In this document: piece by piece, positions 1-31,400 of the stretch
How positions within the stretch are numbered: position 1 is the stretch's first letter
Layout: each line of letters starts with the position of its first letter
Assembly (NCBI GenBank): GCA_964187785.1
Contig: OZ076413.1
Span: 58,032,001 to 58,096,000 of the forward strand
DNA from: Amphiscolops sp. MND2022
Lineage: Eukaryota
Reading direction: 5' to 3'
Length of the DNA stretch: 64,000 nucleotides
The notes under the pieces: generated by a model
Seen by the model: only the letters and a program-made list of their open reading frames with translations
What the model was told of the DNA's origin: nothing
Databases searched by the model: none
Translations under genes and position numbers: made by a program

Positions 1-373
1 TAGCTACCAAACACAATCGTATAAATCGAAGCAAAGAATGTGTCACGAGTCTACTTTGGAGACGGATTGGTCGGAAAAAAAGGAGACGACACTCACCAGC
101 AACAACCAACAGAGGGCCACAACACACTATAGCGTCGCTGATGAATATTGTTCAAATGCAGATTGTTGTCGCGACTCGTCTATTGGAAATTTTGCAACAA
201 CATTCTTCATCTGAAATTTCCACAACCACCACAAATGACATCAGCACAATAACCGAGTAATTTTCCTTTGCAAGCCTACCTTGCCAATTCAAATCATTAC
301 CTTTGTTCACTACCTACAGTTCAGTTGTTATTTGCTGATTCAAAAAATTTTGACAAAATAAAAAATTTTCATC

Positions 374-1009
374 ATGTCATCAACTGCTGTCATCAACCCT
401 GTTGATTGTAAAGTGTTGAAATGTTTTAAAGTTGAAGTTAGTACAAAACGTTACCTTTTAATTACCGTTAAAACCTATCCGTCTTCTTCAGAAAGCTATA
501 CAAGTATTCAACTGTTCAAGTTGGATGAAGAGACCAAGGAATACACACCACAAAAGTATTTGACTCTCAAGTTTCAAGAATTAAACAAAATTCCTTGGGA
601 CGACGTTTACACCAACGTTGTCAATGTCTTCGACTTTTCACTAGACATTCGCATGCCGTACCACAAGAATGATATGGACTATTTTGACTTCATCTTTGAT
701 GTTCAAGACTTTATCTCAAACAAATCGAGAGTCGTCAGAGTAGCTTCCAAGCGTTATCCTCAAGCAACCTACTTGTACTTAAAACTCTTTATTCAACATC
801 AAAAGCGCTGGAAAATGCAACAAACGATAGACATTTCTTGGATGGAGCTATCTCATTTACTGAGCGTTGTCAAAGAGATTCAGAGCTACCCAAATGGAAT
901 ACCTAAAGAAGGAAGTCCAATCACAGAGACTGGTTTATTTCGTCCAATCGCAACATTGACTAACCCAGAAATCAGCAGCAGCAGCAGCGTCAGTAGCAAT
1001 AACCATTAA
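374..1009 (+). CDS. Polinton accessory protein with two putative PC4-like (ssDNA-binding) repeats
   Basis: Intact 211-aa ORF. Two internally similar segments (KRYLLITVKTY..YTSIQLFK..EYTPQKYLTLKFQELNKI and SRVVRVASKRY..YLYLKLF..WKMQQTIDISWMELSHL) show a beta-strand series plus helix pattern like PC4. The fold call is inference. Confidence 0.55.
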   Translation: MSSTAVINPVDCKVLKCFKVEVSTKRYLLITVKTYPSSSESYTSIQLFKLDEETKEYTPQKYLTLKFQELNKIPWDDVYTNVVNVFDFSLDIRMPYHKNDMDYFDFIFDVQDFISNKSRVVRVASKRYPQATYLYLKLFIQHQKRWKMQQTIDISWMELSHLLSVVKEIQSYPNGIPKEGSPITETGLFRPIATLTNPEISSSSSVSSNNH

Positions 1010-1069
1010 CAAATTTTTTGAGTGCTTCATTACCTCTCTTACTCTTACAGAATTTAGTTGCTTGCTTGC

Positions 1070-1684
1070 ATGATGGCTGATTTCAACTACATTATTACGT
1101 TTGTTTTGGATGTGGAGTTTTTAGAAGTTGACGTAGTTAAAGAAATTAGTGTAACCACACCGTACCACTCTGTATCTTTATCATTCAAACCTCCCAGACC
1201 ATGGAAAGATCTAACCCGTGAAGAACAACTGGATTACAACAACAATAACAACACTCTCAATGTTCCGTGGGATGAAGGCGCTATTGACTATAAGGAACTG
1301 AGGAACGCTGTATACACCCTCATTCCACCAGGAGTCATGAAGTATGCAAAAGGAGTGCAAAAGTGTGACTTTTTCTCTCGTTTTTTCCATTTCAAAATTC
1401 ACAATTTGGAAGACATGGGCTGCCCTGACGCCTCTGCAATCCAATATTTGATAAATAAGAACATTAAGGAGAACAACGACAACGACGACGACGACGACAA
1501 GGAGAACAGGCCGTTGTGTCCCAATTTTCCCAAATATCCCAATCATTATGAAAAATGTGCAGCCATCAATAGTAAGCTTTATCTCAAGTGGTTAGCCAAT
1601 AAAATTAAAGAAGATCCTGCTGCTGCGGAAATGGCGCGAAAGACTTCCCCGCTGCGCAACGATGCAGCACTCATACTTATGTAA
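1070..1684 (+). CDS. DEDD/DnaQ-like 3'-5' exonuclease-fold protein typical of Polintons
   Basis: Motifs LDVEF..KEI, FKPPRPW, W.EG..DY, YAKG..K, NLEDMGCP and CA..N...LKW. ATG at 1070 is preferred to the TTG at 1058. Confidence 0.7.
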   Translation: MMADFNYIITFVLDVEFLEVDVVKEISVTTPYHSVSLSFKPPRPWKDLTREEQLDYNNNNNTLNVPWDEGAIDYKELRNAVYTLIPPGVMKYAKGVQKCDFFSRFFHFKIHNLEDMGCPDASAIQYLINKNIKENNDNDDDDDKENRPLCPNFPKYPNHYEKCAAINSKLYLKWLANKIKEDPAAAEMARKTSPLRNDAALILM

Positions 1685-1713
1685 TTATCATCATCATTTG
1701 TTAAATTTGCAGC

Positions 1714-1977
1714 ATGACTGATCAGCCGGACCTTGCAGTGCAAGAATTCGTTTTTGATGAGAATAACCAAGAACGCAAGCCTTGGACACTTTGCGGCAAG
1801 CCTATTCCACGGTCCGAAATTGTCTTTTTCAGTCAATTACTTGTCATTCTTATGGTTATCTCATTTTGTATTTTCAAACTTTCTGTATCATCTTCAAACT
1901 ATAAAGACAAGCCGGTTTGGATTGCCTTGCTGGCCAGTGCACTGGGATCTATTCTACCCAATCCGACACTGAAATGA
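1714..1977 (+). CDS. Small two-transmembrane Polinton protein
   Basis: 87 aa with two hydrophobic segments (IVFFSQLLVILMVISFCIFKL and VWIALLASALGSILPNP). Its stop overlaps the ATPase start (ATGA). Confidence 0.75.
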   Translation: MTDQPDLAVQEFVFDENNQERKPWTLCGKPIPRSEIVFFSQLLVILMVISFCIFKLSVSSSNYKDKPVWIALLASALGSILPNPTLK

Positions 1978-2708
1978 ACAAGGTCATTCCCACTGACAAC
2001 CATGTGTTTATGTCTCTTGTTGGTCCATCCGGCTCTGGAAAGACTACTCTTTTGTATAAACTTTTAACCTTGCCAGTGTTTCAACCAAGGTACCAATCTG
2101 TAATTTTTTTCTATCAACATTATCAAGAAGCGTACGAAAAATTGAAGCGAGATGTTGAAGAAATTGAATTCATACAAGGACTAGACTTTGATTTGATCAA
2201 TCAATCATTTACACATGACGGAAAAAAACGCTTGCTAATTTTCGATGACTTTTCAGAGGAACTTTTAAAATCTAAAGATTTCACTCGGATTGCTACCGCT
2301 GGTAGACACTTGGGCTTGCATGTTTTGTATATTAAGCATAATTTATTTCATAAATCACCCATTGGAAGAGACGTAGAGTTGCAGTTGACTCATATTGTGC
2401 TTTTTCAATCTCCCCGTGACATTAATCAAATTGAACGACTTGGGCAACAGTTGGGCAAGCAAAAATTTTTACCTCTATGCTATAAGGATGCCACATCCAA
2501 ACCTTTTGGATTTCTCATGATTGATCTGTCACCCAAAACATTGGATCTTTTACGATTTTGTACAAATTTGGAGCCAACAGTTTTCTATATACCCAGTGAA
2601 AAGGCCCGCATTACAGAGATTGACGATGACTACACAACAAGTTATTACGCTGCAGCATTTCAAGAGTCTTTCACTGGCCGACCGGTTGGACATGTTGAAA
2701 AGATGTGA
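1974..2708 (+). CDS. A32/FtsK-HerA family DNA packaging ATPase
   Basis: Walker A GPSGSGKT, Walker B LLIFDD, and downstream GRH and HNLF motifs. ATG at 1974 overlaps the upstream TGA. Confidence 0.93.
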   Translation: MNKVIPTDNHVFMSLVGPSGSGKTTLLYKLLTLPVFQPRYQSVIFFYQHYQEAYEKLKRDVEEIEFIQGLDFDLINQSFTHDGKKRLLIFDDFSEELLKSKDFTRIATAGRHLGLHVLYIKHNLFHKSPIGRDVELQLTHIVLFQSPRDINQIERLGQQLGKQKFLPLCYKDATSKPFGFLMIDLSPKTLDLLRFCTNLEPTVFYIPSEKARITEIDDDYTTSYYAAAFQESFTGRPVGHVEKM

Positions 2709-2931
2709 GGACAATTTCATTGAGTTTCTGGCCGAATCAGTTGTAAACATTTTGCAAGGTGTAGTGCCCGGAATCAGGCGGAAAGACATTGAAAAGTTCA
2801 AGCCACAAATTGTGCGAATCATTTCGACCAAAGCAACTCTTGCGGAACAGCGGGCCATATTCACTTCCCGAAAGGGGCTCTTGTTGCTAGATGTTATTAT
2901 CGAGCATGTTATTCAATACTTTTTAAGTTAG
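2626..2931 (+). CDS. Conserved small Polinton protein (probable virion component)
   Basis: Pattern FIEFLAESVVNILQGVVP..IEKFK..IVRI..G.LLL resembles the small ORF usually adjacent to the Polinton ATPase. It overlaps the ATPase 3' end. Confidence 0.65.
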   Translation: MTTQQVITLQHFKSLSLADRLDMLKRCEDNFIEFLAESVVNILQGVVPGIRRKDIEKFKPQIVRIISTKATLAEQRAIFTSRKGLLLLDVIIEHVIQYFLS

Positions 2932-2936
2932 TAGTA

Positions 2937-3656
2937 ATGGAATTGAAAAAATTTGTATTGATACCTTTTTCACAGTACAAGAGTCAATTGGCATCGAGTA
3001 GGCCTGTCAGCACAGTATTGTACGATTCAAAATTGACCAATGAGGAAAAGACTAAAATTTTGCCTACATTGGACAGAAAAAAAAGGAGAGCTGCTGCTGT
3101 TGTAAGCACGCCCACCACCACGGTCACTGCTAGCACCGTACCTGCAAGTAGTAGTAGTAGTAGTACAACAAAGACTATTGATCGTCAAAAGGAGGCAATT
3201 TTGTTGGATGTGGGTGGAAGCGAAACTACTCAAAGACGTAGCGCTTCGTTGTACGACAAAATTTTGTCTAACCCAAAAATAGAATTGACAAGTGAAGGTA
3301 CAATTAAGCTGGAAAATTCCGACACAGACATTCCTCTCAGCACATTTTTATATAGATTACAGAACCCTTTTCCAAAAAGTAGTCCAGTAACACGACAGTT
3401 TTTGGACATTGTTGAAAATGTGAAAATCCCCGAACACTTGATTGCAAATCAGTCTCTGTTGAAACATCAAAGAAGTAGACAAAATAAAGCTCCTCCTCCT
3501 CCTCTCGGTGGCTCGGACGACGACGCCGACGATGACGAAGAGGACTTTGAAAGCGTCGACGAAGGTGCAGGTAGCAGCAGCAGCAGGGCAACAAGCAGCA
3601 AGGAAAAGAAAGGAAAAGAATGGTATTCAGTCAAGGGCGAAAAGAAACAATTTTGA
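2937..3656 (+). CDS. Polinton protein of unknown function upstream of the integrase
   Basis: Intact 239-aa ORF starting MELKKFVLIP, with Ser/Pro/Asp low-complexity tracts. Its position matches the Polinton layout. Confidence 0.7.
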   Translation: MELKKFVLIPFSQYKSQLASSRPVSTVLYDSKLTNEEKTKILPTLDRKKRRAAAVVSTPTTTVTASTVPASSSSSSTTKTIDRQKEAILLDVGGSETTQRRSASLYDKILSNPKIELTSEGTIKLENSDTDIPLSTFLYRLQNPFPKSSPVTRQFLDIVENVKIPEHLIANQSLLKHQRSRQNKAPPPPLGGSDDDADDDEEDFESVDEGAGSSSSRATSSKEKKGKEWYSVKGEKKQF

Positions 3657-4584
3657 AAAAGACAGAGAAAAAAGGTTGTTGGAAAAGGCTTGGAAGAGTG
3701 GTTTCTCAGCATATGGATCGCGTCAGAATTTGCAAAAAGCTACAAAATTGTCCGTGAAAAAAGTTGATGCCTTTTTGCAAGGTAAAAACTCCTACACAAA
3801 ATTTTTCATTCCCCAGCGTAGATCCTATCCCCGATTGACGACACTTGCTTTCGACATTAACGACATTTGGTGCATGGACGTTGCTTACGTCGATAAAATT
3901 GCCATGCCAAATGATGGTGTAAAATTTTTACTAGTCTGTGTAGATGTCTTGTCACGCTACTTGAGAGTGGAACCACTGAAGCGCCTGACATCTGTTGCTG
4001 TGAAAGATGGTCTAGTTGCCATGTTAAATAAATGCCCGACAGTACATCCCAACAAAATTTGGACCGATCAAGGTCGAGAGTTTGAGGGAGAATTTCGCAA
4101 GTTTTGCAAAACTGTAGGAATACACCAATATAATTCGTTCAGCGGTACAAAAGCAGCGTTTGCTGAGCGAGCCATTAGAGCTTTGAAGGCCCAAATTGTT
4201 CGGTATCTCGAAGAGGAGTGGATGTGGCGCTATATTGACAAGTTGCCAGACTTTGTAAAAACTCTCAACGACCGTGTGAATCGATCAATTGGTATGGCAC
4301 CGTCAAAAGTTGAGAAAAAACATGTGCTCAAACTTATCGCACTCAAACAAAGGTCTGCAGTGATGAAAGAAAAAAAGGCCAAGTACAAGGTGGGCGACTT
4401 TGTACGCATTGCTTCAAAGAATGTACCCTTTAGAAAAGGATATCTGCAACAGTTTACAAATGAAATTTTTTCCATTTCCACCGTGTTCTCCACTCATCCA
4501 CCGTCTTACATTTTGCGCGATGAAAAAGGCCAAGAAATTCAGGGCAAATTTTACGAAGCTGAGATTATTAAAGTACTTAAGTGA
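3532..4584 (+). CDS. Retroviral-like (c-integrase) DDE integrase of the Polinton
   Basis: Catalytic triad in WCMD, WTDQG.EF and FAER; LVCVDVLSRY; C-terminal KYKVGDFVRI...KGY...GKFY region. The start is uncertain (GTG 3508 or ATG 3532). Confidence 0.93.
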   Translation: MTKRTLKASTKVQVAAAAGQQAARKRKEKNGIQSRAKRNNFEKDREKRLLEKAWKSGFSAYGSRQNLQKATKLSVKKVDAFLQGKNSYTKFFIPQRRSYPRLTTLAFDINDIWCMDVAYVDKIAMPNDGVKFLLVCVDVLSRYLRVEPLKRLTSVAVKDGLVAMLNKCPTVHPNKIWTDQGREFEGEFRKFCKTVGIHQYNSFSGTKAAFAERAIRALKAQIVRYLEEEWMWRYIDKLPDFVKTLNDRVNRSIGMAPSKVEKKHVLKLIALKQRSAVMKEKKAKYKVGDFVRIASKNVPFRKGYLQQFTNEIFSISTVFSTHPPSYILRDEKGQEIQGKFYEAEIIKVLK

Positions 4585-4626
4585 AAAAAATACATTTCAC
4601 AAATCATTTTTCAGCTTTAATCGACA

Positions 4627-5091
4627 ATGAGTGGTTCATTCCACAAACAAAACCCATTAAACAATTATTACCGTGGTCCCGTTAGACAAAGAGGAAGTGG
4701 CATTGGGTCTTTAGCCCTCAAAGTTGCACGTCATGCACTACCACTTTTGTCCAAGTACGTTTTGCCCTCTGCCAAAAGAGTGCGAAAAGATTTTGCTTTG
4801 AATTTGTTGCCCGAAGTATTTGATGTTGTCACCGGTCGTGGTGGTGAACCAGCAACATCTTCAAGCATTAAAAAGGCAGTAAAGCGTGCAGCGGGAAAAA
4901 CAGTAAAGAAACAATTGGGCACTGGTGCAGCAAAAAAGAAGAGACGACAACAGTCAGTTGGAAAGAGTTCCAAGACCAAAAACAGTCGCACAGCAAAAAA
5001 GGGCCGCAAAAAAACATCAGGAGGCAAAACAACAACAACAAAAAAGACTCAAAAACGCAAAAAGATTGACATTTTTCAAAACTTGCCTTGA
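4627..5091 (+). CDS. pVII-like basic core protein
   Basis: YYRG..RQRGSGIGS motif followed by a very Lys/Arg-rich C-terminus. It contains Gly-rich sites (RGSG, GRGG) resembling adenain cleavage sites. Confidence 0.75.
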   Translation: MSGSFHKQNPLNNYYRGPVRQRGSGIGSLALKVARHALPLLSKYVLPSAKRVRKDFALNLLPEVFDVVTGRGGEPATSSSIKKAVKRAAGKTVKKQLGTGAAKKKRRQQSVGKSSKTKNSRTAKKGRKKTSGGKTTTTKKTQKRKKIDIFQNLP

Positions 5092-5126
5092 CGGTCAATA
5101 ACATTCGTAATATTATTCTCAAAACA

Positions 5127-6425
5127 ATGACGACGACGGCGGCGCACATAATACCTAAACCGGCAACCCACTCTAGTCTGGACATTTTTTCTAAGCCAGA
5201 AGTGCTTGTGTCTTTTGATAACTCTTTTGAACAAGAAACGTTGCCAGTCACTGCACACGATGCACCAGTTTTTGAGTTTGTACTCACCACTGATCGAAAC
5301 ATTTACTTGGATTTGCAAAGCGTCGAATTAAAGTTGGAGGCAAAAATTGGAAAGGGCGCCAATGGCAATACTAATTTGGAGACGGAGTTGGCTGGAGGCA
5401 ACACTGTAGCTAAAGCAACCGACAAAGTCAGCTTCATCAACAACACTCTACACTCCTTCTTTTCCAATTGTGACATTTTAATCAACAATGAAATTGTACA
5501 CACGTCCAACAATTTGTATGCACAGAGAGCTTTTGTTGAAACGGAACTGTCCCACACACAGGGCTGTGCCACAACAAAGCTCATTACGCAAGGCTACAAC
5601 TTTGAGCCCGCCACCGGTGATATGCTTGCCCACCGAGAAACATGGACCTTAGGTTCCGCTTCAAAGACATTTTATGGAAAACTGGCGGTGGATTTCCTGG
5701 CTTGTGATCAACTTCTCATTCCCAACTGTTCTATGCGAATTCGACTGACACGGAACAAGCCCGAATACTTGCTGCAAAGTGCTGTCACCAACCCTGCCTT
5801 CACCCCAAAAATTGAACGAGTGTCAATTTTTGCTCGTTACTACACTGTTGCCGAAAACTATCACGTCAATTTACAACGATCTCTACTCAAGTGGCCTGCT
5901 AGATACAACTATTTTGAAGTACGCAGCAAGACATTTGTGATTCCAAGGGACCAAAGTCATTTCATTCGTGAAGATATTTTCAATGCAGAACCCATTAGAC
6001 GCATGGTACTGGCCATGTGTCCCAACAATCAGTTTACTGGACGTTGGACAGACACTCCGCTCGCATTCCACAAACACAATTTGAAGAAAGTGCGAGTATT
6101 GCGGAATGGTGTATCAGTGGTGGAATATAGCACAAGTTCCAACACTCAACTTTACTTTAAGACTATTCAAAACCTCCATTTCGATCAAGACGGTCCCCTA
6201 ATCAAGTTGGACAATTATGAAAATCACTACTATCTAGTTTTCGACCTTACCTCCACACTACAGTGCAATCAAGAAATTTACTACCCCGAAATTGTGGGAG
6301 CACCAATACGGATCGAGCTCGAATTTTCGACCAACACTAGCACGCCTTTGGAGCTGTTTGTGCTGGGAGAACGATTTACAACAGTTCAAATTGATCATAC
6401 AGGCAAAGTGTTGAAACATGGATAG
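5127..6425 (+). CDS. Polinton major capsid protein (double jelly-roll, hexon-like)
   Basis: About 430 aa with FEF...D..YLDLQS..L, FINN.LHS.F..CD.LIN, LLIPN..MRI.L.R and a C-terminal FDL....IRIELEF..L pattern. Gene order pVII-MCP-protease fits. Confidence 0.88.
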   Translation: MTTTAAHIIPKPATHSSLDIFSKPEVLVSFDNSFEQETLPVTAHDAPVFEFVLTTDRNIYLDLQSVELKLEAKIGKGANGNTNLETELAGGNTVAKATDKVSFINNTLHSFFSNCDILINNEIVHTSNNLYAQRAFVETELSHTQGCATTKLITQGYNFEPATGDMLAHRETWTLGSASKTFYGKLAVDFLACDQLLIPNCSMRIRLTRNKPEYLLQSAVTNPAFTPKIERVSIFARYYTVAENYHVNLQRSLLKWPARYNYFEVRSKTFVIPRDQSHFIREDIFNAEPIRRMVLAMCPNNQFTGRWTDTPLAFHKHNLKKVRVLRNGVSVVEYSTSSNTQLYFKTIQNLHFDQDGPLIKLDNYENHYYLVFDLTSTLQCNQEIYYPEIVGAPIRIELEFSTNTSTPLELFVLGERFTTVQIDHTGKVLKHG

Positions 6426-6843
6426 TGCAGCCTTGCTACAAGTTATTTCCAAAATTCCCGCACTAAAATATCGATACTTGGGTTGCTTCGACCCCAATAC
6501 TTTCATTTTCCCAATGCCAATAGACACTTTTCAAATTGTAAACACCACTACAGACGTTGAGGGACATTGGATAACGTTGATTCGCTTATCCAACGGTTTT
6601 CACTATTTTGGAGATTCCCTGAAAGCAACAAGTTTGAATCAGTACCCAATGTTGTTTACGCGACTGCCAGAACCGAAGACATCAACAAAAACAACATTAT
6701 TTCTACCTTTGAACACTTCAATAAAGCAGGTCGATTCCTTGTGTGGTCTCTATTGTATTTATTTTGCATGGAACTTGTTTGATAATACACCTAAAGTAAC
6801 GAATGACTTTGAATTGTATCAATTGTTTTGTAATCTTTTATAG
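6418..6843 (+). CDS. Adenain-like cysteine protease
   Basis: IVNT...GHW (His), FGDS (Asp) and Q...SLCGLYC (Gln, Cys) catalytic motifs. Confidence 0.9.
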   Translation: MDSAALLQVISKIPALKYRYLGCFDPNTFIFPMPIDTFQIVNTTTDVEGHWITLIRLSNGFHYFGDSLKATSLNQYPMLFTRLPEPKTSTKTTLFLPLNTSIKQVDSLCGLYCIYFAWNLFDNTPKVTNDFELYQLFCNLL

Positions 6844-6877
6844 AAAAAAAATGTTTGTAAAGAAAGTTTTTTTTTTT

Positions 6878-7777
6878 TCAAACAGTAATTGCAGGCACAT
6901 GTTTTTTGCGAAAATGTAAATTTAAAACAACAAGACCCAAACTGGTAAAGGGAATTAATTTTCCCTTCATATCTCGAATCTCAATCTGTATACTATTGAA
7001 ATTATCCAAACAAACATTTCGATACTGCAAATTGGAAAAGGATCGGTTGTCGTAAGGGTATATGACAATCAAATCCTCATTTTTCGTTCGTTGACGAAAT
7101 GTGAAGGCACGTAAAAGTTGGTTCTTCACATTGCCCACGTTACTAAAGTCTACAATATCACTGTATACAAAAATTGTGTGAAAACGTGCGATATCACAAG
7201 GGTAGGGAGCAATGATTTGGTTGGCTTCACAGTACACAGCATCCGTTCCCAATCCCAAAATTTGAGCCAAGTCATCACTTTGAATTTTGAAGTATACACG
7301 GCTCTGTCCTTCTGTAGTTCCTTCAAACGTGAATGAAAGGTTCAAAGTTTCCTCGTTGTAAGCAAAGGTCATTGTCCTCTCCATGTTTGTAAAAGTAGCA
7401 ATTTGAGAATTCATTGCGTCAATAATTTGACCAATTTCTGTGTAACAACCCTTTGGAATGTTAAAAGAACGATATTGATTCAAAAAGGGCACATCTGGAT
7501 AACTATTTATAAGTTCCTTGCTGACAGTATCAGGTTTGTTTACAACAACGCGATATCGTTGAAGAGTCGGTGTAGGAATATAGCCTAGCGTGAATTCACC
7601 GTCGGTGACATTGTATACTCGGTTTGGGAACGAAATGTCTGTGAGTGCAACTTCCCATTCACTGCCTCTGCCCAAATTGATTGGATTTGACATAAAGTTT
7701 GAGAAAAATGCCAGAGTATTATTTGGATAAATGTCCAAACTTGCATTAGACAATAGATCAATATAAAAGGAAGTCAT
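6878..7777 (-). CDS. Polinton minor capsid protein (penton-like)
   Basis: FYI.L.SNAS.D.YP.NT..F, WEVAL..ISFP, FVYSDIV...VG....LLR and I.IEIRD..G..IPF..G...L.LHFRK motifs. Confidence 0.88.
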   Translation of the reverse strand: MTSFYIDLLSNASLDIYPNNTLAFFSNFMSNPINLGRGSEWEVALTDISFPNRVYNVTDGEFTLGYIPTPTLQRYRVVVNKPDTVSKELINSYPDVPFLNQYRSFNIPKGCYTEIGQIIDAMNSQIATFTNMERTMTFAYNEETLNLSFTFEGTTEGQSRVYFKIQSDDLAQILGLGTDAVYCEANQIIAPYPCDIARFHTIFVYSDIVDFSNVGNVKNQLLRAFTFRQRTKNEDLIVIYPYDNRSFSNLQYRNVCLDNFNSIQIEIRDMKGKLIPFTSLGLVVLNLHFRKKHVPAITV

Positions 7778-7833
7778 TTTAGGGAACTGGATAGGAAACA
7801 CAGAATTTGATTGAATGAGAGTCACTCACTCAT

Positions 7834-8481
7834 TCATTCATCTTCACTGCTGCTGCTGGAGCCAATCATCAGCTTTACCCTCTTTAGATTTTTCTTTTTT
7901 GGTTGGCGACAACGTTTTTCGTCGTCGTCGACATCCGCCGCTGCTCTAGTTTCTGCGTTGCTATCTGTATTATCGGATATCGACCAATAAGATCGTAAGG
8001 ATTCTTCGTATTCTTGTGTTCCCAACTGATTCTCCGTAATGGGCACTAGCGTGTTTTCCAAACGATTGAACTCTCTTCTCAATTCCAGACTCAAACAACC
8101 TGGATGTGTGCACTCCATTTCTTTCCAGTCATACGTTTCCAACATTAAATCAACAGAGTATTGACGGGGCAGTTGTGGCGGACTAGGAGCTGTCAAGTCA
8201 AAAACACTTTGGTTATCAGTCTCACTTTCTCCTTCTTCCTCTTGCTCGTCGTTGTCGTCGTCGTCGTTCGATCTGAGCATTTTTTTTGCCGTATCAACTG
8301 TAACTTGAGCACTAATTAGGTGCAATAAATGTAGCGGTAGGAGAAAAGACTCAACAATTTTCCATTCATCATTTGTTGCTGAGTTTTTCACTTCCTTTAT
8401 TAGGATTGCCGACGCTCCGAAATGTGTCTTGTAGGCAAATATACGTTCGACATCATTACGTTGTGTGAATATGTAAATCAT
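7834..8481 (-). CDS. Polinton accessory protein with an acidic low-complexity middle and a possible N-terminal PC4-like domain
   Basis: Intact ORF co-oriented with the penton gene. ATG at 8481 (MIYIF) is preferred to the TTG at 8499. Confidence 0.65.
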   Translation of the reverse strand: MIYIFTQRNDVERIFAYKTHFGASAILIKEVKNSATNDEWKIVESFLLPLHLLHLISAQVTVDTAKKMLRSNDDDDNDEQEEEGESETDNQSVFDLTAPSPPQLPRQYSVDLMLETYDWKEMECTHPGCLSLELRREFNRLENTLVPITENQLGTQEYEESLRSYWSISDNTDSNAETRAAADVDDDEKRCRQPKKKNLKRVKLMIGSSSSSEDE

Positions 8482-9327
8482 TGTTTCCAACAACAACAAA
8501 TTTATTCTGAAAACAATAATGTTAAACTACTGCAAAAAAAACAATCATTTTGACTGTTGAAGGAGCTTCAGCAGTGACCAACAGAGTGGATGAGAGCTGC
8601 TTGCTTGAAGAAGCGTGTTTTTAATTGATGGGAAAAAAGTTTATAAAAATTATACATTCTAATGCAAAATTTTTTTTCGCAGTGTGGAAAAAGGGCAGAA
8701 TTCGTTATGTTATGTTGATCGTTGTGAATCTTGTATAGTTGTCGGGTGGTAAACAAGAGCTACTCTAACTGCTATTCTCAGTCAATAAAGATGAAAACAA
8801 AAAAAATTTTTTGAAAAAAAAATTCACATGAAAATATTGAGTGAACCCTAGACATGGGCACATCAAATTCGTCTAATTTTTCGTCCCAAATCTAAATTTT
8901 GCATCAAAACAGCGTTTCTTGTAAAACTGGAGTTTTTCAAAAATTTTGCCCCATGGGGGGATTTTTTCCCTTTCGGAAAATAATTTTTCAAGAGGGTTTT
9001 TTTTCGTCTTTCCAATGATATATATGACGATGGGTGTTCATGATAGTCATTGACAAGTGAAATTTCGAGTTTTAAAATTGAAAAAAAATGACTGAAACTA
9101 AGTTTTTCCGTGAGTCAAGACCATGCATTCATGTTTAAATTTTAATTCCAACCAGAATATGTCAATAAAAGCGCATTTCAGAATTTTTCATTTTTCTCCA
9201 TGATAAGGGGTTGTTGACGTTCCAGTGTTAACGTTAAACAAAGTAGTAATTGATTATGTACAAAACTAGATTCAAATCCAAAAAGTGAGTCTTTAAGATG
9301 TTAGTGTTAAATGAAGAAAACTACAAC

Positions 9328-10486
9328 TTAGCTATTAGTTGTTTTTGGAGACGCCAATTGAAGAACATCGAGCAAAGTTCGTTCCAAAAACTGCTCAGTG
9401 TAGTGAAATTGGTCAGTCATGTCGACGCCCCTGGTACGCATCTTGTGCACGTTCAAAGATTTGCACTTTTCGAGCTGTTTCTGCAAAACTTTATCGACCC
9501 TTTTCTTGTTCGAATTGGGAAGAAGTTGATTACGTCTCGCCAGACCAATCACTAGTTTGACACCTTTAGTTCTGCAAACTCTGTTCCAGAGCATTAGTTT
9601 TTCCGTAAGGTCTTTAGGTGACAGTGTTGAAACACTATTGTTCCCTTAAACACATTGTTTCCCAACCAACAATCTTTTTTTAATCGCAAAAAACTCAATT
9701 TTGTTGCTACGGGGCAACAGGGTTAGGGTTAGGGTTAGGGTTAGGGTTAGGGTTAGGGTTAGGTTTGAAAAAAAAAACAAAAGAGTACAACTAACTTGGT
9801 GGCATTGTGAGCGAATTGTAGAGAATGTCGGGAAAGATAAAGACGAACTGACACTCTGGTCGAGAAAGGGCTCGAAACAACAAGGAGTCAAGGGTAGGTT
9901 TAGAAGAGGAGGAGTATTCATGTCGACCGCCACTTTCGGCGAGAATTTGGATATGTTTATAATGAGATGAATCCTTAATGATTCTAGAAAGATTTGAAGC
10001 ACCAATAACAATCGCGTGCTTTTTTTCCATAAAACCTGAAAACAGATGATGTGTTATTTCATTGTCAGAGCAGAATAGTTTTGGTACTAGAACAAATCGT
10101 GCAAGTACAGACAAAAACAAAAAAACATGCAAATATTCATATTAGAACTGATTTTTGATACAATAATACTTATGAGAGTTGTTTATGCGTTTTTGGAGGG
10201 CCTGGAGGATACCCACATCAAGGGTACCTTTCCTCCAGGCCTCCACACATGCGCGCAGGAGCCCGCGCTCGTGCTTTCTGATCGCCCAGAAGGCGAACAG
10301 ATCGAGCACGGGCTCCATCGCAGTCCCATCGATGTAGGATTGGATTCCCTGCAGCAAAAAGGTATTGGTTTTTTTAACGAGTGTTTAACCTGAAGTTTCG
10401 AAAACAAAACTTAACGTACCTCGTGACGACAAATCATCAGCAAAGCGTCCCATGTCTCCGCCGATATTTCAGTGAGGCAGGAACCT
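9328..10486 (-). CDS. Spliced gene encoding an SGNH/GDSL-hydrolase-like domain; predicted exons about 10486-10420, 10348-10228, 10035-9796 and 9644-9328
   Basis: The GTTAGT...TTTAAG intron 9795-9645 joins the two largest exons in phase. This gives IVIGASN (block I), ESGG (II), PDILYNS (III) and DQFH (DxxH, V). The upstream GT-AG junctions are also in phase but less certain. Confidence 0.65.
9719..9763 (+). repeat. Interstitial telomere-type repeat, (TTAGGG)6 plus partial units
   Basis: Six perfect TTAGGG units at 9723-9758 with flanking partial units. Confidence 0.97.
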
Positions 10487-12049
10487 CTACATTTTTTGTT
10501 AATTAACCCCCAAGAATAATGATCCAAAAGGTCCATTTCTTGGAGATTTAACATTTTGTTTAGGAAATGGTCTCAAGAATTGTTGCTGGTAACTTTTTGT
10601 TGCTGGTTGTTAAGTATTGTTGCTGGTGTTTAAATTTCTGAGCAAGGAATGAATTTTCCGTGCTCGTCAGGCTCAACCCACTAAGCACCTCCTCCGATTT
10701 TTTCGAGTTTCACTTTTATCTGGGAAACATCAAAGATTTTAACCCAGGCACAATTTCCATATCTAATCATTTGGAAACTCGGATAAACAACCATATTCAC
10801 TTTTTAGGGCCCATAAGACCTCGATCAAAGGCTCGGCTATCTTTTGAACCTGCTTTCAAAGTGTTGCAGGGTCCACCTTTATTCCTTTGAAATTCAGAAC
10901 CCACCAAATTTGAGTTTCCAAGTGATGAATCAAAGAAAAGACCGACACTCTGTTAATTGGCATTGTTTTTTTTTTCAGTTATAATTAACAAAAAAATGTT
11001 GCCTTCACAATTCCAAAACAAATTAGAAGGCATTTTGATTGCTTTTTTTCCAAAAATTTAGCATTTTTTCCCGAAATTTTCATGCTTTTCTCAGACATTT
11101 TAGGTCATTTTGTCTCTTTACAGAATGTGAAAATTCGGTGTAAAAAGAAGCTGGGATGATTTCCATATGCTTGCTGGAATAGTTAATGACTGTTTCCATT
11201 ACGCAAATGAAGGCAATATCAGGGAAATTTGTTCCACAGCAATCACACTTCTAAAGAAAGGTAATATAATCTAAGAGCACATTCATTTCAAAGTTGCTAG
11301 ATTAAAAGAATTTTTATTGATTCCATTTCCTTTCATCCCATCTGCGTTCCATTTCCATTCCTAACAAACCACTCCTTCCATTTTTATTACTTTCCAGCAC
11401 GCCAAGGTAAGGAACTTTCCTTTCATTGCCTGAAATACGAACAAAAAATTATCGGGCCTGTATTTTGTTTTCGGATTTTGTTCGGCTCTCGGTGATTTTT
11501 TTTTGTTCGGATATGTCATGTTCGTATCGCAAATATTACGTAACGTTTCAGAAAGTTTTGTTGTCCATATTTGGTTACTCACTCAACCCCCCCCACATAT
11601 AATGCCACGTACATTTACTACTTGAGACCTTCATCAATTTACCGCGGTTTCGATGCAAATAATTTTCAGTCACATTATAAGTTTCAACGTAGCGTCATAT
11701 TCAGCGTGCTATTTGACTAATGGTGTTTACATGAGGTAGTTGCTTGAGAAACTTACGTGTGAAGAGAAAGTGATCACGGTGGTGAAGAAGTAGAAATGTT
11801 TTCAGTTTTAACTCAAATAGTGAAAGCTGCATAGTAATCCTACAAAATGCTTCCATGCATGGTCCCTGAATTTTCCATGTTTTATAAAAAAAATAGCCGG
11901 CATTTTTCGAAGGTGCCTGTAAAACTTCGCGGCAACTTCGACTAGGGGTGGCATGTTTTCTTTCGTCAGTTCAACCTTTTGTGCGTTATGCACTTTTTCC
12001 ATTTCTATTTAGTACTTAATTTTGAACGCATCCAAAGCCTCTAACATGG

Positions 12050-12388
12050 AAGAAAAAACCATTCCAAAGCAGAATGGTCCCTCCTTTCCACTTTTTTCGA
12101 CACTATGAGACTTTCCCTTTTTTCGGCTCTATGAGATCTTTTTTGAAAATTTTTCGATGTCTCCAAAGGGCCCCTCCTTGACCTTTTTTGATGTTTTACA
12201 ACAGAATGGATGTTGAAAAACCCCAAAGGGTCCCCCTATCAAATTTTTGCGGCACCGTGAGACCTTTCACATTTCTCAATTTTTCAATCGATGTTTTTTT
12301 GATGCTCCAAAGGGTTCCCCTTCGATTTTTTTTTCATTTTTTCTAACAGAATGAATGTTTGAAAAATTTGGGCCGTTCCCGGCTTGTT
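12050..12388 (+). mobile_element. Partial copy of the dispersed about 480-bp HINE-like repeat family
   Basis: Shares AAAGGGTCCCC subrepeats, ACAGAATGGATG and the CCCGGCTTGTT end with the 22768-23245 copy. Confidence 0.55.
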
Positions 12389-12840
12389 CTCTTTTGGCTA
12401 AATAATAGTAGGTGCTTCGAAAAAAGTTGTCAGATCGAATGACTAGCAACAGTATTTGAAATTGTTTCGAAAGAATTGTTGACAAAACATGTGTCACAAC
12501 CCCACTGTTGTGTTGGAGCCATGGGGCAATTCGTAAGGAAACTAGAATCTGCCAAACCCAATTTTTAGCAGATTATCAACTTTTCTTATTCAACAAGGAC
12601 TATAAACTAATCCCGCTAACATCATAACTTATTCATTTAACTTCATATTTGTTGTTCTTATTTCAAACTGAGTTCTGTTTTACATTGTTATACATTTGAA
12701 ATATTAGAAGCGTAAGTTTCATTCATCATTAGATACTGATCTGACTCAATTCTTGTTCACACAGTTTGTGAGAGCTAAATTTATGCTAATATGTGGAACT
12801 TGAACAAATTATACGTCACTATGCGGATCGAGCAAAGACG

Positions 12841-12915
12841 AGTATTCGGCAGTATGCGGATTACAGATGAAGAGTATGCGGCAGTATGCGGATTACAGAT
12901 GAAGAGTATGCGGCA
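12841..12915 (+). repeat. 32-bp tandem repeat, about 2.3 copies
   Basis: Unit AGTATGCGGCAGTATGCGGATTACAGATGAAG. Confidence 0.9.
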
Positions 12916-14078
12916 TCCTGCGGTTCGAGCAGTGACGTATCTTCGTCATTATGCGTTTTTACCTGGATTACCTATATGAAGTAACTACGTGATTCTCTGC
13001 TATTGGATAACTTTTGAAATACATTTCATATGATATTTAGTGCTATTTCTAGGGTTCTACCATTCGCTTTTCCATTCGTGTTTGGAGTATCACGCAGTTA
13101 CAATTAGGATATATATAGTATGACGTTATTTGACGTAATTCTATTTTTGTATTTTCTGAGGAATGACTTCAGGAAAAACGAGTGTCATGATATCATTTTT
13201 GGAGCTATTTTGCTGTAATTTGAAAACCCGGATCATAACAAAAACTACTTTCATAAAGTGCAGTCGTTTCACGAATTGACTTCTTTTCATAACTGCAAAT
13301 CCTTCGTGTACCGTCAATTTCATACTCTCTAATTTGATTTCCTCGAATTTGCTAGACATTCAAATTCGTCCCCGAAAAGCCAGAACCTATTTTCTGTTGA
13401 GCAAAGATGGGAAAAGAAGAAACAGGAGACAAGTGATATTGAAAAAGACCTTCGGGATCCAAAAATGAGAGGTCTATAGGAGTTCGCGCATCTAATAACA
13501 AAAATCCAGAATCAGAAAACGACAATAATCCTCTCAGAGCTTCAAAGGTGAAAGACTTGAAACATCCAGCCAAATCATTGTACCAAACCGAACTGAACTT
13601 AGAAGACAGAATAATAGCTTCAGAAGAGGATTATCACAACATGGAAACTTGGAGAGCTTCAAAAATCCCATAGTACCATCTTTAGAGTCACTTATATTAT
13701 TTTCTGAAGGTTTGAAGAATCCTTGATTGAAGATTACATTACACAGCGATAACTATATTTTTATTGATAGACTGAAGCAATGAAATATTCTCAGTACTTT
13801 GTTAGCAAATTATACTATTTTGAAGAGTAAAACTTAAAATGTGTTCAATTTCAGTATTTCATTTCGTTGTTCTTTGCATGTTTCACTACTGGAACAGAAA
13901 ACAACAAGACACGAAATTTCAACTTCAAAATTCGAACATTTGTGATAAAATATTCGTGAAGGAAATTTCTGTAAACAAAATACTGAGAATCATTCTACGA
14001 GGAGCATTTGAAGTGTAGCTCTCAATAGGTGGCTCTCAGCAAAAACTTCACCTAAAGATGGCTCGAAACTCAAAAATA

Positions 14079-14160
14079 TGTAGACGTCTTTAGCAGTTAC
14101 TGCGAAAAAACATTCACGCATCGCATTCAATTGATAAAGTAACTGCTAAAGACGTCTACA
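14079..14160. repeat. 23-bp inverted repeat with a 36-nt spacer
   Basis: TGTAGACGTCTTTAGCAGTTACT at 14079-14101 and its reverse complement at 14138-14160. Confidence 0.92.
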
Positions 14161-14369
14161 AAACGAAACGAAGTTAAACGTTTCGCAAAATTACAACGTG
14201 AAAAAACGAACGCATAAACTGTTTCGAGTTCAATGTTTGGAATCTTTGCCAAGAAGTACTTTATAAAGTACTTCTTGGCTAAGATTCCAAACATTGAACT
14301 CGAAACAGTTTATGCGTTCGTTTTTTCACGTTGTAATTTTGCGAAACTTTTAACTTCGTTTCGTTTTGT
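14158..14369. repeat. 212-bp spacerless palindrome
   Basis: Centre between 14263 and 14264 (AAGTACTTTA/TAAAGTACTT). The 106-bp arms differ at 2 positions by manual comparison. Confidence 0.95.
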
Positions 14370-26243: not shown

Positions 26244-26654
26244 TGTTGCGGTAGCAATATCGCTAATTTAAAACAAACAAATAATAAGACGGTTTAGTGT
26301 AGAGGTAGTAATACTAGCTCTCCAATCGAAAGGTCTACGGTTCGAATCCCGGACGGGTCCGTAAATGTTTCGGTTAAAACTTGTATTTTTACCATAAAAT
26401 ATATTCAAATAACCTTGAAAAATGCTCTTGAAAAGGCCTTGCTATTCAGTTCAAAAAGCGTTGTTTACTAATATTTGTTAATATTGTTTCGTTTATGTTC
26501 TTTTGCCGTTTGTTATTTGATTAAAACATTTATTCCTAAAGCATTGATACCTCGATTTATAGCCGATATCAGCATCAACCAAAAAATACATTGTTTGGAT
26601 CTTTTCGTTTCTTCAAAACGAACTTTAGAGAAGCTCGATCACTAAAGTTTTAAA
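26244..26654 (+). repeat. BEL 5' LTR
   Basis: TGTTGCGG...AGTTTTAAA. It differs from the 3' LTR at the 2 positions I could find (CTCTTG/CTCCTG and the terminal AAA/ACA). Confidence 0.96.
26288..26360 (+). ncRNA. tRNA-derived (Trp-CCA-like) module in the 5' LTR with A-box and B-box
   Basis: 73 nt with TAGTGTAGAGG (A-box-like), a paired D-stem GTGT/ATAC, CT-CCA-AT at the anticodon position and GGTTCGAATCC (B-box). The acceptor, anticodon and T stems are mismatched, so it is not a functional tRNA. Confidence 0.7.
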
Positions 26655-26671
26655 TGGTGGCCATAGAGAGG
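26655..26671 (+). promoter_or_regulatory. Primer-binding site
   Basis: TGGTGGCCATAGAGAGG directly after the 5' LTR. TGGTGGCCA is complementary to a tRNA 3' end ...UGGCCACCA (Ile-like, tentative). Confidence 0.8.
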
Positions 26672-26787
26672 CATTTCATCCTATTCAGCCCATTCATCCT
26701 CTTCAGCCCATTTCATCCTATTCAGCCCATTCATCCTCTTCAGCCCATTCATCCTATTCATCCTGTTCATCTAGTTCATCCTGTTCA
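26672..26787 (+). repeat. 18-nt tandem array in the BEL leader
   Basis: TCATCCT(A/C)TTCAGCCCAT about 4 times, decaying into 9-nt TTCATCCTG units. Confidence 0.9.
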
Positions 26788-26894
26788 ACAACCTACACGA
26801 CTTTCCACACAAATTTATTTCACAATTGGAATTGTAGAGTTCAATTCCACTAGAAATTTCGCATTGCAACCGCCATTTTCATAATCGAGGGGTC

Positions 26895-27090
26895 AGCAGA
26901 GGGTGTCCCCCCACAACTGAGGGTGTCTCCCACAGCAGAGGGTGTCCCCCACAACAGAGGGTGTCTCCCACAGCAGAGGGTGTCCCCCCACAGCAGAGGG
27001 TTCCCAGCAGAGAAAGTCCTAGGGGTGTCCCCCACAGCCGAGGGTGTCTCGCACAGCAGAGGGTGCCCCCTATCAGCAGAGGGTCCTTCC
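26895..27090 (+). repeat. About 19-20-nt GC-rich tandem array in the BEL leader
   Basis: AGCAGAGGGTGTC(C/T)CCCAC, about 10 variably degenerate units. Confidence 0.9.
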
Positions 27091-27586
27091 CCCCAGACCA
27101 GGAAGTCCCCCCGCAGGCAAAGTGCTAACCACTACAGCCCCCCTCGAAAGTCAGAAGTTGTCCGGAAACCCAGAAAATGCCCGAAGTCCCGAAGATACCC
27201 CAATCAACCCAGTAGAGGTATTTTTTAAACAGAAAAAACTGCTCCAACAACGTCCTTGAAAAACTTTGATGTGCGCTATATTTAGTCAAAAGCAAGACCT
27301 TTGAAAAAAAACAAATTTTTCGGAAATTTCTTGAATCACTGTGACTTTTTGAAAATAAACATCGGAAATGGCGAAGTTCGGAATACTTGCTTTCTATTAG
27401 AATTGCATCAGAAAGAAAAGACTTCTGTTCATTCTAGCAGCATTTTTCTTGAAAAATAGGTTGTAATAATACTTGAAAAAACCAACAAATTGCGAAACTT
27501 TGAAAAAAGCAGCTGGCGCCCAAAAAAGGCTCAAAAAACTTCGATAGTCTCAAAAAAGCAAGTGAAATATGCCGAAAAAATATTGA

Positions 27587-28189
27587 ATGGTTCGAATTTT
27601 GGCCGCCAGTTCGTTGCATCATGCAATAGAAACTGTTATCCCCGAAAATCAAAACGCTCTAAAAGAAAAAATTTATTCCATACCGGGCCTGAGTTTAAAC
27701 ATTAACGCAAAAAATCCTCGAAAAATTGTACAAAATCTGATTGAAAAAGATTTCAAAGACGAAAACGAACTGATAATTTGGCACGACGTAATTAATAACA
27801 GTATCTGTAAACATAAAAGCAACTTTTACCGTGCCTTGTCAGTGATTGACCTAGTGAATGTTCTGAAATCTTATCAACACAGAATCAGGGCTCTTGTGTA
27901 CTGCCAACGGAATCGAACGCCTGACATTTTCTTGCAATTGAAAGAGAAAAACATTCTTGTATTGAACATTGAAAAAGATTTTACTTCGCTGCGTAAGCAA
28001 AAGGATCCCGAATATTTGCAAAATTTGAAGGCGTTGCACCAGAGTCCTGACCTAGAATTGAAACATCTAAATCTAATTTTGAAACATGAAAACGATCTTC
28101 ACCAAATTACTGCCCGCAGTCGACCCAAACGTCCTTCTAAACGCGCCCGTAAGGCAATAAAAACCCAGTCACTTGCTGCTGATAACTGA
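27587..28189 (+). CDS. Extra ORF inside the BEL element upstream of gag-pol, SGNH-hydrolase-like
   Basis: Intact 200-aa ORF between the LTRs with RILAASSL, SIPGLS and IIWHDVINNS in SGNH block order and a basic C-terminal tail. Confidence 0.65.
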   Translation: MVRILAASSLHHAIETVIPENQNALKEKIYSIPGLSLNINAKNPRKIVQNLIEKDFKDENELIIWHDVINNSICKHKSNFYRALSVIDLVNVLKSYQHRIRALVYCQRNRTPDIFLQLKEKNILVLNIEKDFTSLRKQKDPEYLQNLKALHQSPDLELKHLNLILKHENDLHQITARSRPKRPSKRARKAIKTQSLAADN

Positions 28190-28426
28190 CTTCCCTCTTC
28201 ATCTCTGTGTTGTAGCCGCGTCCGGACTTCATTGTCTGGTTGACGCTGCAACCAGTAAAAGTTTCTTTTCTGTGTTGTGTCCGAGCTTCACTGCTCGGTT
28301 GATTCACAGAAAGAACCACCCTCCCGTAAAAAAGCAGCAGTGCATCCGTCCTTTTAATCATCTGTACGACGTGCAGATCATCGTAATCGTCCTCTTTTAA
28401 CCCAAACAAAAAAAAACAGAAGAATT

Positions 28427-31400
28427 ATGACTGACTTGCAAGAAAAAGTCCAGAAATTGCACGATAGCCGATTGAAGGCGCAAACCGAACTAAACAGCTT
28501 GCAACAGAAGATCTCTGATTCCATCACCAACGCAGACAGACGAGTAAAAGTTGAACGTCTCGTGAAAGAAGCTGAAGATGCGATGACGAGAGCATTCAGC
28601 AAAAACGAACAAATTTTTGCGCTTGCATCAAAAACTACTAATGCTGAGGCACTCAAAGCGGACTTAGAACAGTGGTTGAAAGAGGTCACTGAGCAGAACG
28701 ACGAAATTTTGAGAAAGGCCCGCGAATATATTGATGCTTGCCCAGCAGCTGATGAAAAGTCACATTCTTCGGTCGGCACTGTTAACGAAAAGGCTTCGAA
28801 ACGATCTTCGATATCAACGAAATCGAAAACATCAAGTCAGAAACAGAAAGAACTTGTTTTAGCAATGCAACGTCGGGAAGAACTGGCACGACAGAGTGAA
28901 AACGCGCTACGTTTAGCCAAGCAGAGACATGAGTTCGCACGGAAACGCTTAGAAGAAGAACAGGCTCTCCAACTGGAAGAAATGGCGGAAGAAAACCGAC
29001 GAAAACTTGCGGAAGCAAGAATTACCGAACTGGAGTTGACTGAAAACCTTTCTGAAGCGCCTGATGAATTCCACGAAACACTGTCTCGCATTAGCAAACA
29101 CAGTAGACAAACCGCATCCCAGAGAGTGTCCGACTGGGTCAATGATGTTAATTCGGAACCGCCACAAGCCGTAACTACTGAGGCCAACGCAGAAGCCGAA
29201 TCTTCAAATCCGCCAGTTGCTTCAACAACACTAATAACAGAAGTTGTTCAAAGCAGCTACCCTAACCAACTCGCAGCGCTTGCATCTGGACTGAACACTT
29301 TCCCGCCTGAACAGCAGCTCAACGTTGCCGCTGTCAACTTTTCCATGCCAGTTATACCAAACAGCTCTCCTCCGTCACTGGCTGCGGTCAATCACCTACC
29401 TTTTCGACACGTGCCGTCTGCAGCCGCTCCTACAACATCAACAACCGTGCCCCTCGTATCTCAGACCCCAAATTTGCCTTCGCAGACGCAACAGCCTGCT
29501 ATTCCGATTACAACACAGCCTCTGTTCACCATACCATCCAGCCATGCTGTTCCTAACTTGTCTGCTTGGACATTCCCGGCTGGAAACAGCCTTCCAATAA
29601 CACAATATACTGCCCCGCCACCTACTGGAGGACAATTCACTCTTTCAGGCAGCGTCGCAGCACCGATCGTGACTACCGCCAGTTCGGTTCCAGTTGTTCC
29701 AGTTCGAAGTGGAGGAACCACTTATTACTGCAACCCTCAAGCCGTTACAGTTCCTACAGTTACCGGACCAACAATACAACCTACATCGACACTGATACCG
29801 GCTCCTACTTTCCCGAACTTTCAAAATCCGATCGTTCCACCACCGACGCCAACGACAGTAACAGTGAACGATCTTGCTCAACTTTTGTCCGCTGCGAAAA
29901 AGGACCATCTTCCTGAGTGGAAACTGGCGCAATACAACGGAGATCCACTGCAATGGCATGAGTGGATAGGTCAGTTTAGGAGTGCCATTGACTCCGCACC
30001 ACTTTCGAATGATGTGAAGCTTACGTATCTGAAAACACTCGTGACGGGCAAAGCGAAGACAGCGATTGCGGAATTTGCGTACTGTGGGACTATGTACCAA
30101 GATGCACTGAAGACGCTAGAGCGGAAATTTGGGCAACCACAGGCAGTTGTGTCTGCTCATCTTGACAAACTGAATAACTTCCCGCCATTAAAAATGCATA
30201 ACAGCGATAATGTGATCGCATTTTCTGCAACAATTTCCGCTATGGTTGGCGTGTTCCGCTCGCTGAAATACGAACACGACTTGTCAAGCGCAGCCTTATT
30301 GGGTCAAGCTGTGCAGAAACTTCCTCCTAACATGAAGGAAGCTTGGTCTCTGCATACTGTGAAGAAAGATTGGAGCCGACCGACCCTTTTAGAATTCAAC
30401 GACTGGTTGAAAGATAAAGCCGAAGCACACGAAAGAATGAAAGTGTCTTCAGCGAAACCGAAGGCTGACGAAAGTGCTCCTACTGTTACACGCACCAAGA
30501 CTGGAGCGAAAGTGTTCGCCGCGGCTAGTTCTAGCGCACCTTCAACTGGAACTTCATCCAAGACAAATCGAGTGCAATTAGCTTGCATTGCTTGCAAAGA
30601 AAATCATCCTTTATGGCGATGTCGCGTGTTTCTCAGTAAAACACCTACCGAAAGAGCAAAGGTAGTTGCCGAAAACAAACTTTGCTTCTCGTGTTTTAAA
30701 GGAAACCACTCTTTCCGTCAATGTCCACAACCACGCAAGTGCAATAAAGATAACTGCTCAAGTTCTCATAATACTCTGTTACACGGTGCCGAACGAGTCT
30801 TCCAACCAAGAACCACTCCGAAAACGTCACGAAACCATGTAACTAGTTCTTGTAGCTCCACAACACCAAACAGTCAAACTGGTGAAAGTTCCGGCGTGTG
30901 CTCGGTAACCGACATGAAAGGACTTCTCCAAATCACAGAGGTCGAAGTACATACCGGAACTAACTCCGCAAAGGTGCTAGCTTTGTGTGACTCTGCTTGC
31001 AGTCACTCGTGGATTTCTGAAAAACTTGCAACAAAGCTTAACCTGAAAGGTGTACCAACCAAACTAACAGTCCATGGGATAAACTCACAACAGGTTGTTG
31101 ACACTGAGATAGTTGAGCTCAAGTTGACGCCCGTTCATTCGGGTGGCTCTTGCTCTGCTTTCAATGTCAAACCCTATGTGAGAAAGACTTTGCACGTTGG
31201 AAATGATGTCATCGATGTGGACTCTCTGAAAACAATCTACCCTCACTTGGAGCCCATTGCTCTAAAGACATACAGTTACGCAGATGTCGAAATGATACTG
31301 GGTCAAGACGTGTTCCATTCAATCCGCCCGTTGGAGTATTTTGAATCCGACCGAAAAAATTCTCCAATTGCCGTTCGAATACCGTTGGGTTGGGTTTTGA

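Follow-up and report, generated by a model that had tools for sequence, protein, structure and literature searches.

How are the closely packed genes of a Polinton/Maverick element transcribed from within a host chromosome: each from a promoter of its own, or by splicing onto a leader that several genes share? The question is raised by a 64,000-nt stretch of the Amphiscolops sp. MND2022 genome (assembly GCA_964187785.1, contig OZ076413.1, positions 58,032,001 to 58,096,000 of the forward strand; hereafter the window, in whose coordinates all positions are given), in which a Polinton/Maverick virion and integration block fills approximately positions 1-8600, the left part of the element lying beyond the window. 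An earlier note on this DNA had drawn attention to pyrimidine tracts followed by CAG before several start codons, and proposed that downstream genes are expressed by alternative splicing from a shared leader, as in the adenovirus late unit, or by spliced leader (SL) trans-splicing. Here we describe a different sequence signature, a pair of motifs resembling an initiator (Inr) and a downstream core promoter element (DPE); the pair stands at fixed spacing on the sense strand upstream of most of the spaced genes and is conserved in related elements. We consider it likely that most of the spaced genes, together with the major capsid protein (MCP) gene, start separately from TATA-less Inr-DPE core promoters of RNA polymerase II, and that the overlapped genes are reached by coupled translation.

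Paired Inr and DPE-like motifs upstream of most spaced genes

The Drosophila consensus combines an Inr, TCAKTY, with a DPE, DSWYVY, at +28 to +33 under strict spacing, according to Table 1 of PMC4581360 and the accessible text of PMC8384218. On the plus strand of the window, the predicted promoter of open reading frame (ORF) 374 (294..328) carries the Inr TCATTA with A+1 at 296 and the DPE-like word AGTTGT at +28 (323-328), matching DSWYVY at six of six positions; an alternative, overlapping pair with A+1 at 291 has its own +28 at the AG of 318-319. The predicted promoter of ORF 1070 (1027..1061) likewise has TCATTA (A+1 at 1029) and AGTTGC at +28 (1056-1061, 6/6), and that of ORF 4627 (4604..4638) has TCATTT (A+1 at 4606) and GGTTCA at +28 (4633-4638, 5/6), the latter word lying within codons 3-4 of ORF 4627 itself. 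For the MCP gene the candidate site (4954..4989) is placed inside the coding sequence (CDS) of ORF 4627, 171 nt before the MCP start codon, with TCAGTT (A+1 at 4956) and AGTCGC at +29 (4984-4989). On the minus strand, the putative penton gene is preceded by a predicted promoter at 7783..7818 (TCATTC, A+1 at 7816; AGTTCC at +29, 7788-7783, 6/6) and ORF 8481 by a weaker one at 8523..8557 (ACAGTC, A+1 at 8555; AGTTTA at +28, 8528-8523, 4/6). Altogether the pair is found upstream of six of the seven spaced genes, four sites having the +28 and two the +29 spacing; the remaining, poor site is an Inr-like TCATTT before ORF 1714 (1694..1712, plus strand, A+1 at 1696) whose best downstream word matches at 4/6 positions at +29. 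Compared with the Inr forms TCAKTY and YYANWYY, the sites share the core TCAKT except for the ACAGTC of ORF 8481, and no TATA box was found at -30 at any of the seven. Strict matches to the pair number six in the window; five are on the sense strand, and all five precede genes.

A capsid profile retrieved 42 related loci from metagenomes (designated L with a number), of which 17 were used for the gene-start tests, duplicates and very short pieces being avoided. The pair recurs in these relatives at 32-86% capsid identity. In the closest of them, L002 (86% MCP identity), the distance from Inr to ATG and the DPE of ORF 4627 are both kept, and the leader contains no AG. Across the window and the 17 loci, a search of the 80 nt upstream of 113 gene starts gave 66 TCA[GT]T sites. 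The DPE shorthand RGWY was found at +28 from the A of these sites in 18 of the 66 and at +29 in 9; any other offset from +10 to +40 gave between 0 and 5. The relatives by themselves gave 15 sites at +28 and 8 at +29 out of 59. The background is 42/657. Of 50 spaced genes in the relatives, 21 have TCATT upstream (null 6.4; antisense 2). L047 and L048 were fetched later and share no megablast match with the loci already in use; each has the pair at +28 before the MCP gene, and in L047 each of the three sense matches has a start codon 25-74 nt downstream. Both are Polinton capsid loci within a bacterial metagenome-assembled genome, most likely through eukaryotic contamination.

The MCP site is the most consistently kept. 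A pair lies upstream of the MCP gene in 19 of 20 non-redundant loci and in 0/20 on the antisense strand; when CA[GT]T and AGTC were compared in 21 loci, 16 had the +28 and three the +29 spacing, with no more than two at any other offset. Within the upstream ORF the Inr coincides with codons for Ile or Ser, and the 27 bases between Inr and DPE vary and are purine-rich. A conserved Ser-Arg near the C-terminus of that ORF is encoded AGT-CGN in 13 of 14 loci, where 0.156 would be expected per dipeptide, and the fourteenth, L009, retains the DPE match with a different peptide. Because of this codon choice and of L009, the apparent constraint at the MCP site is on the nucleotides, at the level of the DNA. 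Upstream ATGs are missing from 15 of 16 MCP leaders (3.9 expected), but this depletion was discarded as support, since 14 of 16 control stretches from upstream of the Inr lack them as well (5.4 expected).

In the mechanism that we propose, host RNA polymerase II would initiate independently at the A of each TCATT or TCAGT Inr, 18-78 nt before most spaced genes and, for the MCP gene, 171 nt upstream from within the preceding gene; the DPE-like word at +28 or +29 would position the start at these TATA-less sites. The ATPase gene, ORF 2626 and the protease gene, whose starts overlap the previous stop, are probably translated by coupling from the upstream transcript. Given the scarcity of AATAAA signals inside both gene units, it is probable that the RNAs form a nested set, reading through the CAG sites and ending together near 6700-6800.

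The same words could have another function. TCATT with its +28 partner might serve as a branch point and acceptor or signal a 3' end, or be an artefact of coding: TCAT fits the branch word TNAY, five of the window AGs follow it at a distance of 17-30 nt, and the MCP site encodes a conserved Ser-Arg. We regard this as very improbable, as many of the +28 words begin with GG rather than AG, the spacing is fixed, the 27 nt at the MCP site are purine-rich and include other AGs, and both the codon choice and L009 point to constraint on DNA. At the MCP site the acceptor interpretation fails, because a pyrimidine tract is lacking and further AGs intervene between Inr and DPE.

CAG sites and the explanations by splicing

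The six AGs listed in the earlier note are all present, each with a preceding C, and as read from the sequence they lie 54, 19, 1, 12, 9 and 25 nt before their ATGs. The first (318..319, plus strand, before ATG 374) is also the +28 of the alternative Inr at 291, and the fifth (minus 7788-7787) forms the first two bases of the penton DPE; two of the six are thus explained as belonging to the promoter signature, and a T-rich leader joined to the AG of a DPE would produce part of the acceptor-like appearance with no need for a shared viral leader. The other four are not DPEs, being placed at +21/+22 from the Inr (1049..1050, plus), +16/+17 from the Inr-like TCATTT (1711..1712, plus), +8/+9 (4613..4614, plus) and +48/+49 (8507..8508, minus). 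A seventh CAG, overlooked earlier, lies at minus 8531-8530 in the leader of ORF 8481. This predicted leader also contains an upstream ATG opening an 8-codon frame (minus 8548-8546), ahead of both CAGs, which splicing would remove.

Enrichment of such sites, which the note had suggested checking, was borne out. A site was counted as acceptor-like if it had CAG, at least 8 pyrimidines in the 14 upstream positions and no AG in the preceding 15 nt; this cut-off was set after the sites had been seen, so that the P values are optimistic. Six of seven spacers were positive and 0/7 in antisense, compared with null means of 0.86 in base shuffles, 1.55 in dinucleotide shuffles (P=0.0006) and 0.85 in host DNA matched for GC content (P=0.0002). 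Stricter cut-offs left 5/7 and 3/7 spacers, with P between 0.0014 and 0.028 against the dinucleotide null. The sole miss was the MCP spacer, as the note had said of this gene, and it has no motif there because its pair lies inside the upstream CDS. The likeness to host acceptors is partial: by eye, all five introns of the oxidase-like gene end in CAG and four of the five in TTTCAG, but just two of the six Polinton sites read TTTCAG. With Inr and DPE held fixed in the shuffles, a CAG lies between them in 5/6 window leaders (null 0.61-0.67), and in 4/5 when ORF 374 is omitted (null 0.53, P=0.0004).

Among the relatives the picture is different. A CAG stands between Inr and DPE in 8 of 34 leaders; within 60 nt of the ATG it is found before 13 of 65 genes as against 6/7 in the window (Fisher P=0.001), or before 10/65 as against 4/7 if only non-DPE CAGs are counted (P=0.023). 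Structural genes of the relatives have the motif in 3 of 30 cases, where 3.2 are expected, and it is therefore not conserved there. Their accessory genes are modestly enriched (7/18, null 2.6, P=0.0095); the CAGs before such genes in L021, L019, L008, L016 and L018 are possibly real 5' introns. Abutting genes of the relatives have it in 16 of 51 cases (null 6.0), inside coding sequence, an excess that we would ascribe to codon constraint. A CAG also recurs in the preceding CDS 25-38 nt before the start of the ATPase gene or ORF 2626, at 1936 and 2595 in the window and in L003, L009, L018, L019, L021 and L028; either codon constraint or genuine sites may lie behind it. The excess of acceptor-like sites is genuine and particular to the window element, which has more of them than its relatives.

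The adenovirus major late transcription unit has one promoter and one leader that serve the late genes. A comparable arrangement here, with a leader exon cis-spliced alternatively to each acceptor, would fit the occurrence of unpaired acceptor-like sites ahead of several genes in tandem, the excess at accessory genes of relatives and the donor-like words 32-225 nt before 1711, 4613 and 7788; the plus-strand leader could lie in the left part of the element, beyond the window. Donors were scored with a generic matrix, for which five host donors (0.4-3.5) served as reference. Within 300 nt upstream of 318, 1049 and 8508 none reached the weakest host donor, the best scoring -0.2, -2.4 and -1.5, respectively. 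Donors at 257 and 989 would give short cis introns of 63 and 62 nt; these were rejected on their low donor scores, and the first acceptors gave no open fusion by eye. Genes on both strands would demand two leaders, with the -1.5 donor the best available before 8508; the MCP gene has no acceptor, and the structural genes of the relatives mostly lack acceptors (present in 3/30) yet have Inr-DPE pairs. We judge such a leader very improbable, and the proposal that downstream genes depend on one finds no support, given that most spaced genes have conserved Inr-DPE signatures of their own, that of the MCP gene included, and that the CAG is not conserved before the structural genes of relatives.

Trans-splicing is a different matter, since separate promoters are compatible with an added use of the CAGs by an SL. 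The CAGs might act as SL acceptors on read-through RNA and so yield capped single-gene mRNAs, an arrangement that does not exclude the promoters and that we think quite possible, if somewhat short of an even chance. It would account for the CAG excess that persists after Inr and DPE are fixed, for the higher count in the window than in relatives (6/7 versus 13/65) and for the poor donors before 318, 1049 and 8508, and the scarcity of internal AATAAA implies read-through RNA across the CAGs. TAG words resembling acceptors also occur before the start of the oxidase-like host gene. A weak pointer to an SL host comes from the neighbouring Pao/BEL element, whose only named match, of 120 relatives listed, comes from Convolutriloba, an acoel (51% identity); another acoel, Symsagittifera roscoffensis, has 30.2% of its genes trans-spliced, as stated in the consulted part of PMC9911081. 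In C. elegans, the available sections of PMC3730108 list 154 genes with the main start no more than 20 bp from the SL1 site, 76% of which also have upstream starts. Against SL use, an outron beginning at the gene's own Inr would measure 9-49 nt, less than the 51 nt cited for efficient C. elegans trans-splicing in the accessible portion of PMC4691747. In L002, the closest relative (86% MCP identity), the leader of ORF 4627 is free of AG, and the motif was chosen after the fact. The acoel SL word does not occur in the 64-kb window. A fuller version, in which clade-wide Inr-DPE promoters were supplemented, in a lineage living in an SL host, by CAGs gained between Inr and ATG, with the SL splitting the nested read-through RNAs, is put forward tentatively. 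The non-DPE CAGs may equally be unused, a by-product of T-rich leaders and after-the-fact selection, for which we see a nearly even chance. There are just four or five sites, at unfixed positions from +8 to +49, one of them missing in L002; their significance drops with stricter cut-offs, and 8/34 leaders of relatives also contain such a CAG. The difficulty for this view is that shuffles preserving composition, Inr and DPE seldom match the count (P=0.0004 without ORF 374).

Several observations tell against gene-by-gene Inr-DPE promoters. ORF 1714 has no good DPE and the pair of ORF 8481 is weak, and the MCP and penton sites use the +29 spacing that the Drosophila rule disallows. The loose pair also occurs in antisense, with three and four matches in L047 and L048. 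The ATPase gene, ORF 2626, ORF 2937, the integrase gene and the protease gene have no conserved pair, with 0-3 loci at +28 as at other offsets; most of them overlap or abut the preceding gene. In the host portion of the window, no distinct peak stands out at +28 (9/174 and 6/133 sites, with 1-7 at other offsets). Counts across the related loci are not independent, owing to common ancestry. Finally, the excess of CAG is not accounted for by these promoters, and the four non-DPE sites are unexplained.

Gene content and surroundings of the element

The plus-strand genes begin with ORF 374 (374..1009, 211 aa, without a Pfam family), ORF 1070 (1070..1684, 204 aa, with homologues in related elements) and ORF 1714 (1714..1977, 87 aa, with hydrophobic stretches), the stop of which overlaps by 4 nt the start of an A32-like packaging ATPase gene (1974..2708; Pox_A32, E 3.1e-10) that has no spacer and no conserved promoter pair upstream. 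A retroviral-type integrase (3532..4584; rve, E 5.5e-12) is followed by ORF 4627 (4627..5091), a basic protein of 154 aa without a family match, which from its position and composition we take to be a pVII-like core protein. The MCP (5127..6425) was recognized as a double jelly roll by Foldseek on a predicted model of mean confidence (pLDDT) 82; the matches were capsids of iridovirus (best, E 3.7e-17), PBCV-1, Sputnik and mavirus. Searching its profile by sequence against solved structures gave no match, and the protein falls in a cluster of 167 near-identical members. In the viral contig set, no relative of the MCP or integrase was found and four distant ATPase loci matched. A putative adenain-like protease gene (6418..6843) overlaps the MCP stop by 8 nt. 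It is labelled through its orthologues in L021 and L018, which match Peptidase_C5 weakly, just short of the cut-off (E 0.0009 and 0.002); the window protein itself had no C5 match in the Pfam scan.

The minus-strand unit opens with ORF 8481 (7834..8481, 215 aa), followed by the putative penton gene (6878..7777), which has homologues in relatives and no family match and bears the label given by the earlier note. The window and its closer relatives (L017, L033) have the penton gene on the minus strand, convergent with the protease gene; in more distant ones, which include most of the relatives, it is instead located between the integrase gene and the basic gene. No ORF for a protein-primed DNA polymerase B was found in that portion of the element which the window covers. 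In the related element L021, a 1402-aa ORF (9461-13669, minus strand) had no polymerase match in Pfam and weak nuclease-like matches. A repeat search of positions 1-9800 against the rest of the window found no match.

Approximately 1.2 kb past the last Polinton gene there is an interstitial (TTAGGG)n tract of about seven units (9717-9762), and at 14158-14369 a palindrome with 106-nt arms, 98% complementary and without a spacer, which adjoins a 23-nt inverted repeat. A Pao/BEL retrotransposon with an unbroken frame of 2163 codons occupies 26244-35447; its 409-bp repeats (26244-26652 and 35039-35447) are 99.8% identical, and its insertion was therefore recent. In the ESM Atlas it matched only generic Pao families. 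It is followed at 35449-40207 by a six-exon oxidase-like host gene with spliceosomal introns, presumably D-amino-acid-oxidase-like from its motifs. Ahead of the oxidase start there is a 63-nt tandem duplication, where ATGs have acceptor-like TAG words 5-9 nt upstream. A search with the first exon of this gene, aimed at recognizing the host, gave no match.

Relation to known systems and meaning for Polinton transcription

In gene content the element agrees with animal Polintons/Mavericks (adintoviruses), having the integrase, A32 ATPase, double-jelly-roll capsid and a putative adenain-like protease in the usual compact block. Its predicted promoters resemble the Drosophila type in both words, the +28 spacing and the lack of a TATA box, as far as this type is set out in the consulted text of PMC4581360 and PMC8384218. 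They differ in that the Polinton repeats the pair gene by gene, overlapping start codons or lying within CDS, and in that the +29 class is common; here they are predictions from sequence. With the adenovirus major late unit the element shares tandem virion genes and acceptor-like sites before several starts; unlike that unit, it has promoter signatures for individual genes, no leader donor that we could find and a capsid gene without an acceptor. The C. elegans SL system offers, in the sections of PMC3730108 available, a precedent for an acceptor a few bases after the start site, with the true outron coming from initiation upstream. Symsagittifera roscoffensis is an acoel with an SL (PMC9911081, in part); SL joining in the Polinton is a proposal from sequence.

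In the literature searched, mostly without subscription papers, no account of core promoters or SL use in Polintons, Mavericks or adintoviruses was found, and transcription of Polinton/Maverick virion genes is apparently undescribed there. A paper on Polinton trans-splicing (10.1101/2024.01.15.575659) concerns, in its accessible part, repeat-mediated eri-6/7 splicing and not an SL on Polinton genes. The fixed Inr-DPE signature supplies predictions of start sites at the level of single bases, and may serve as a marker for true gene starts and for judging which copies are intact. Should the CAGs take the host SL, a virus-like element would be adapting its leaders to host RNA processing. The signature itself implies that the capsid module would rely on host RNA polymerase II and TFIID, with no part for a spliced late leader or for a giant virus as helper.

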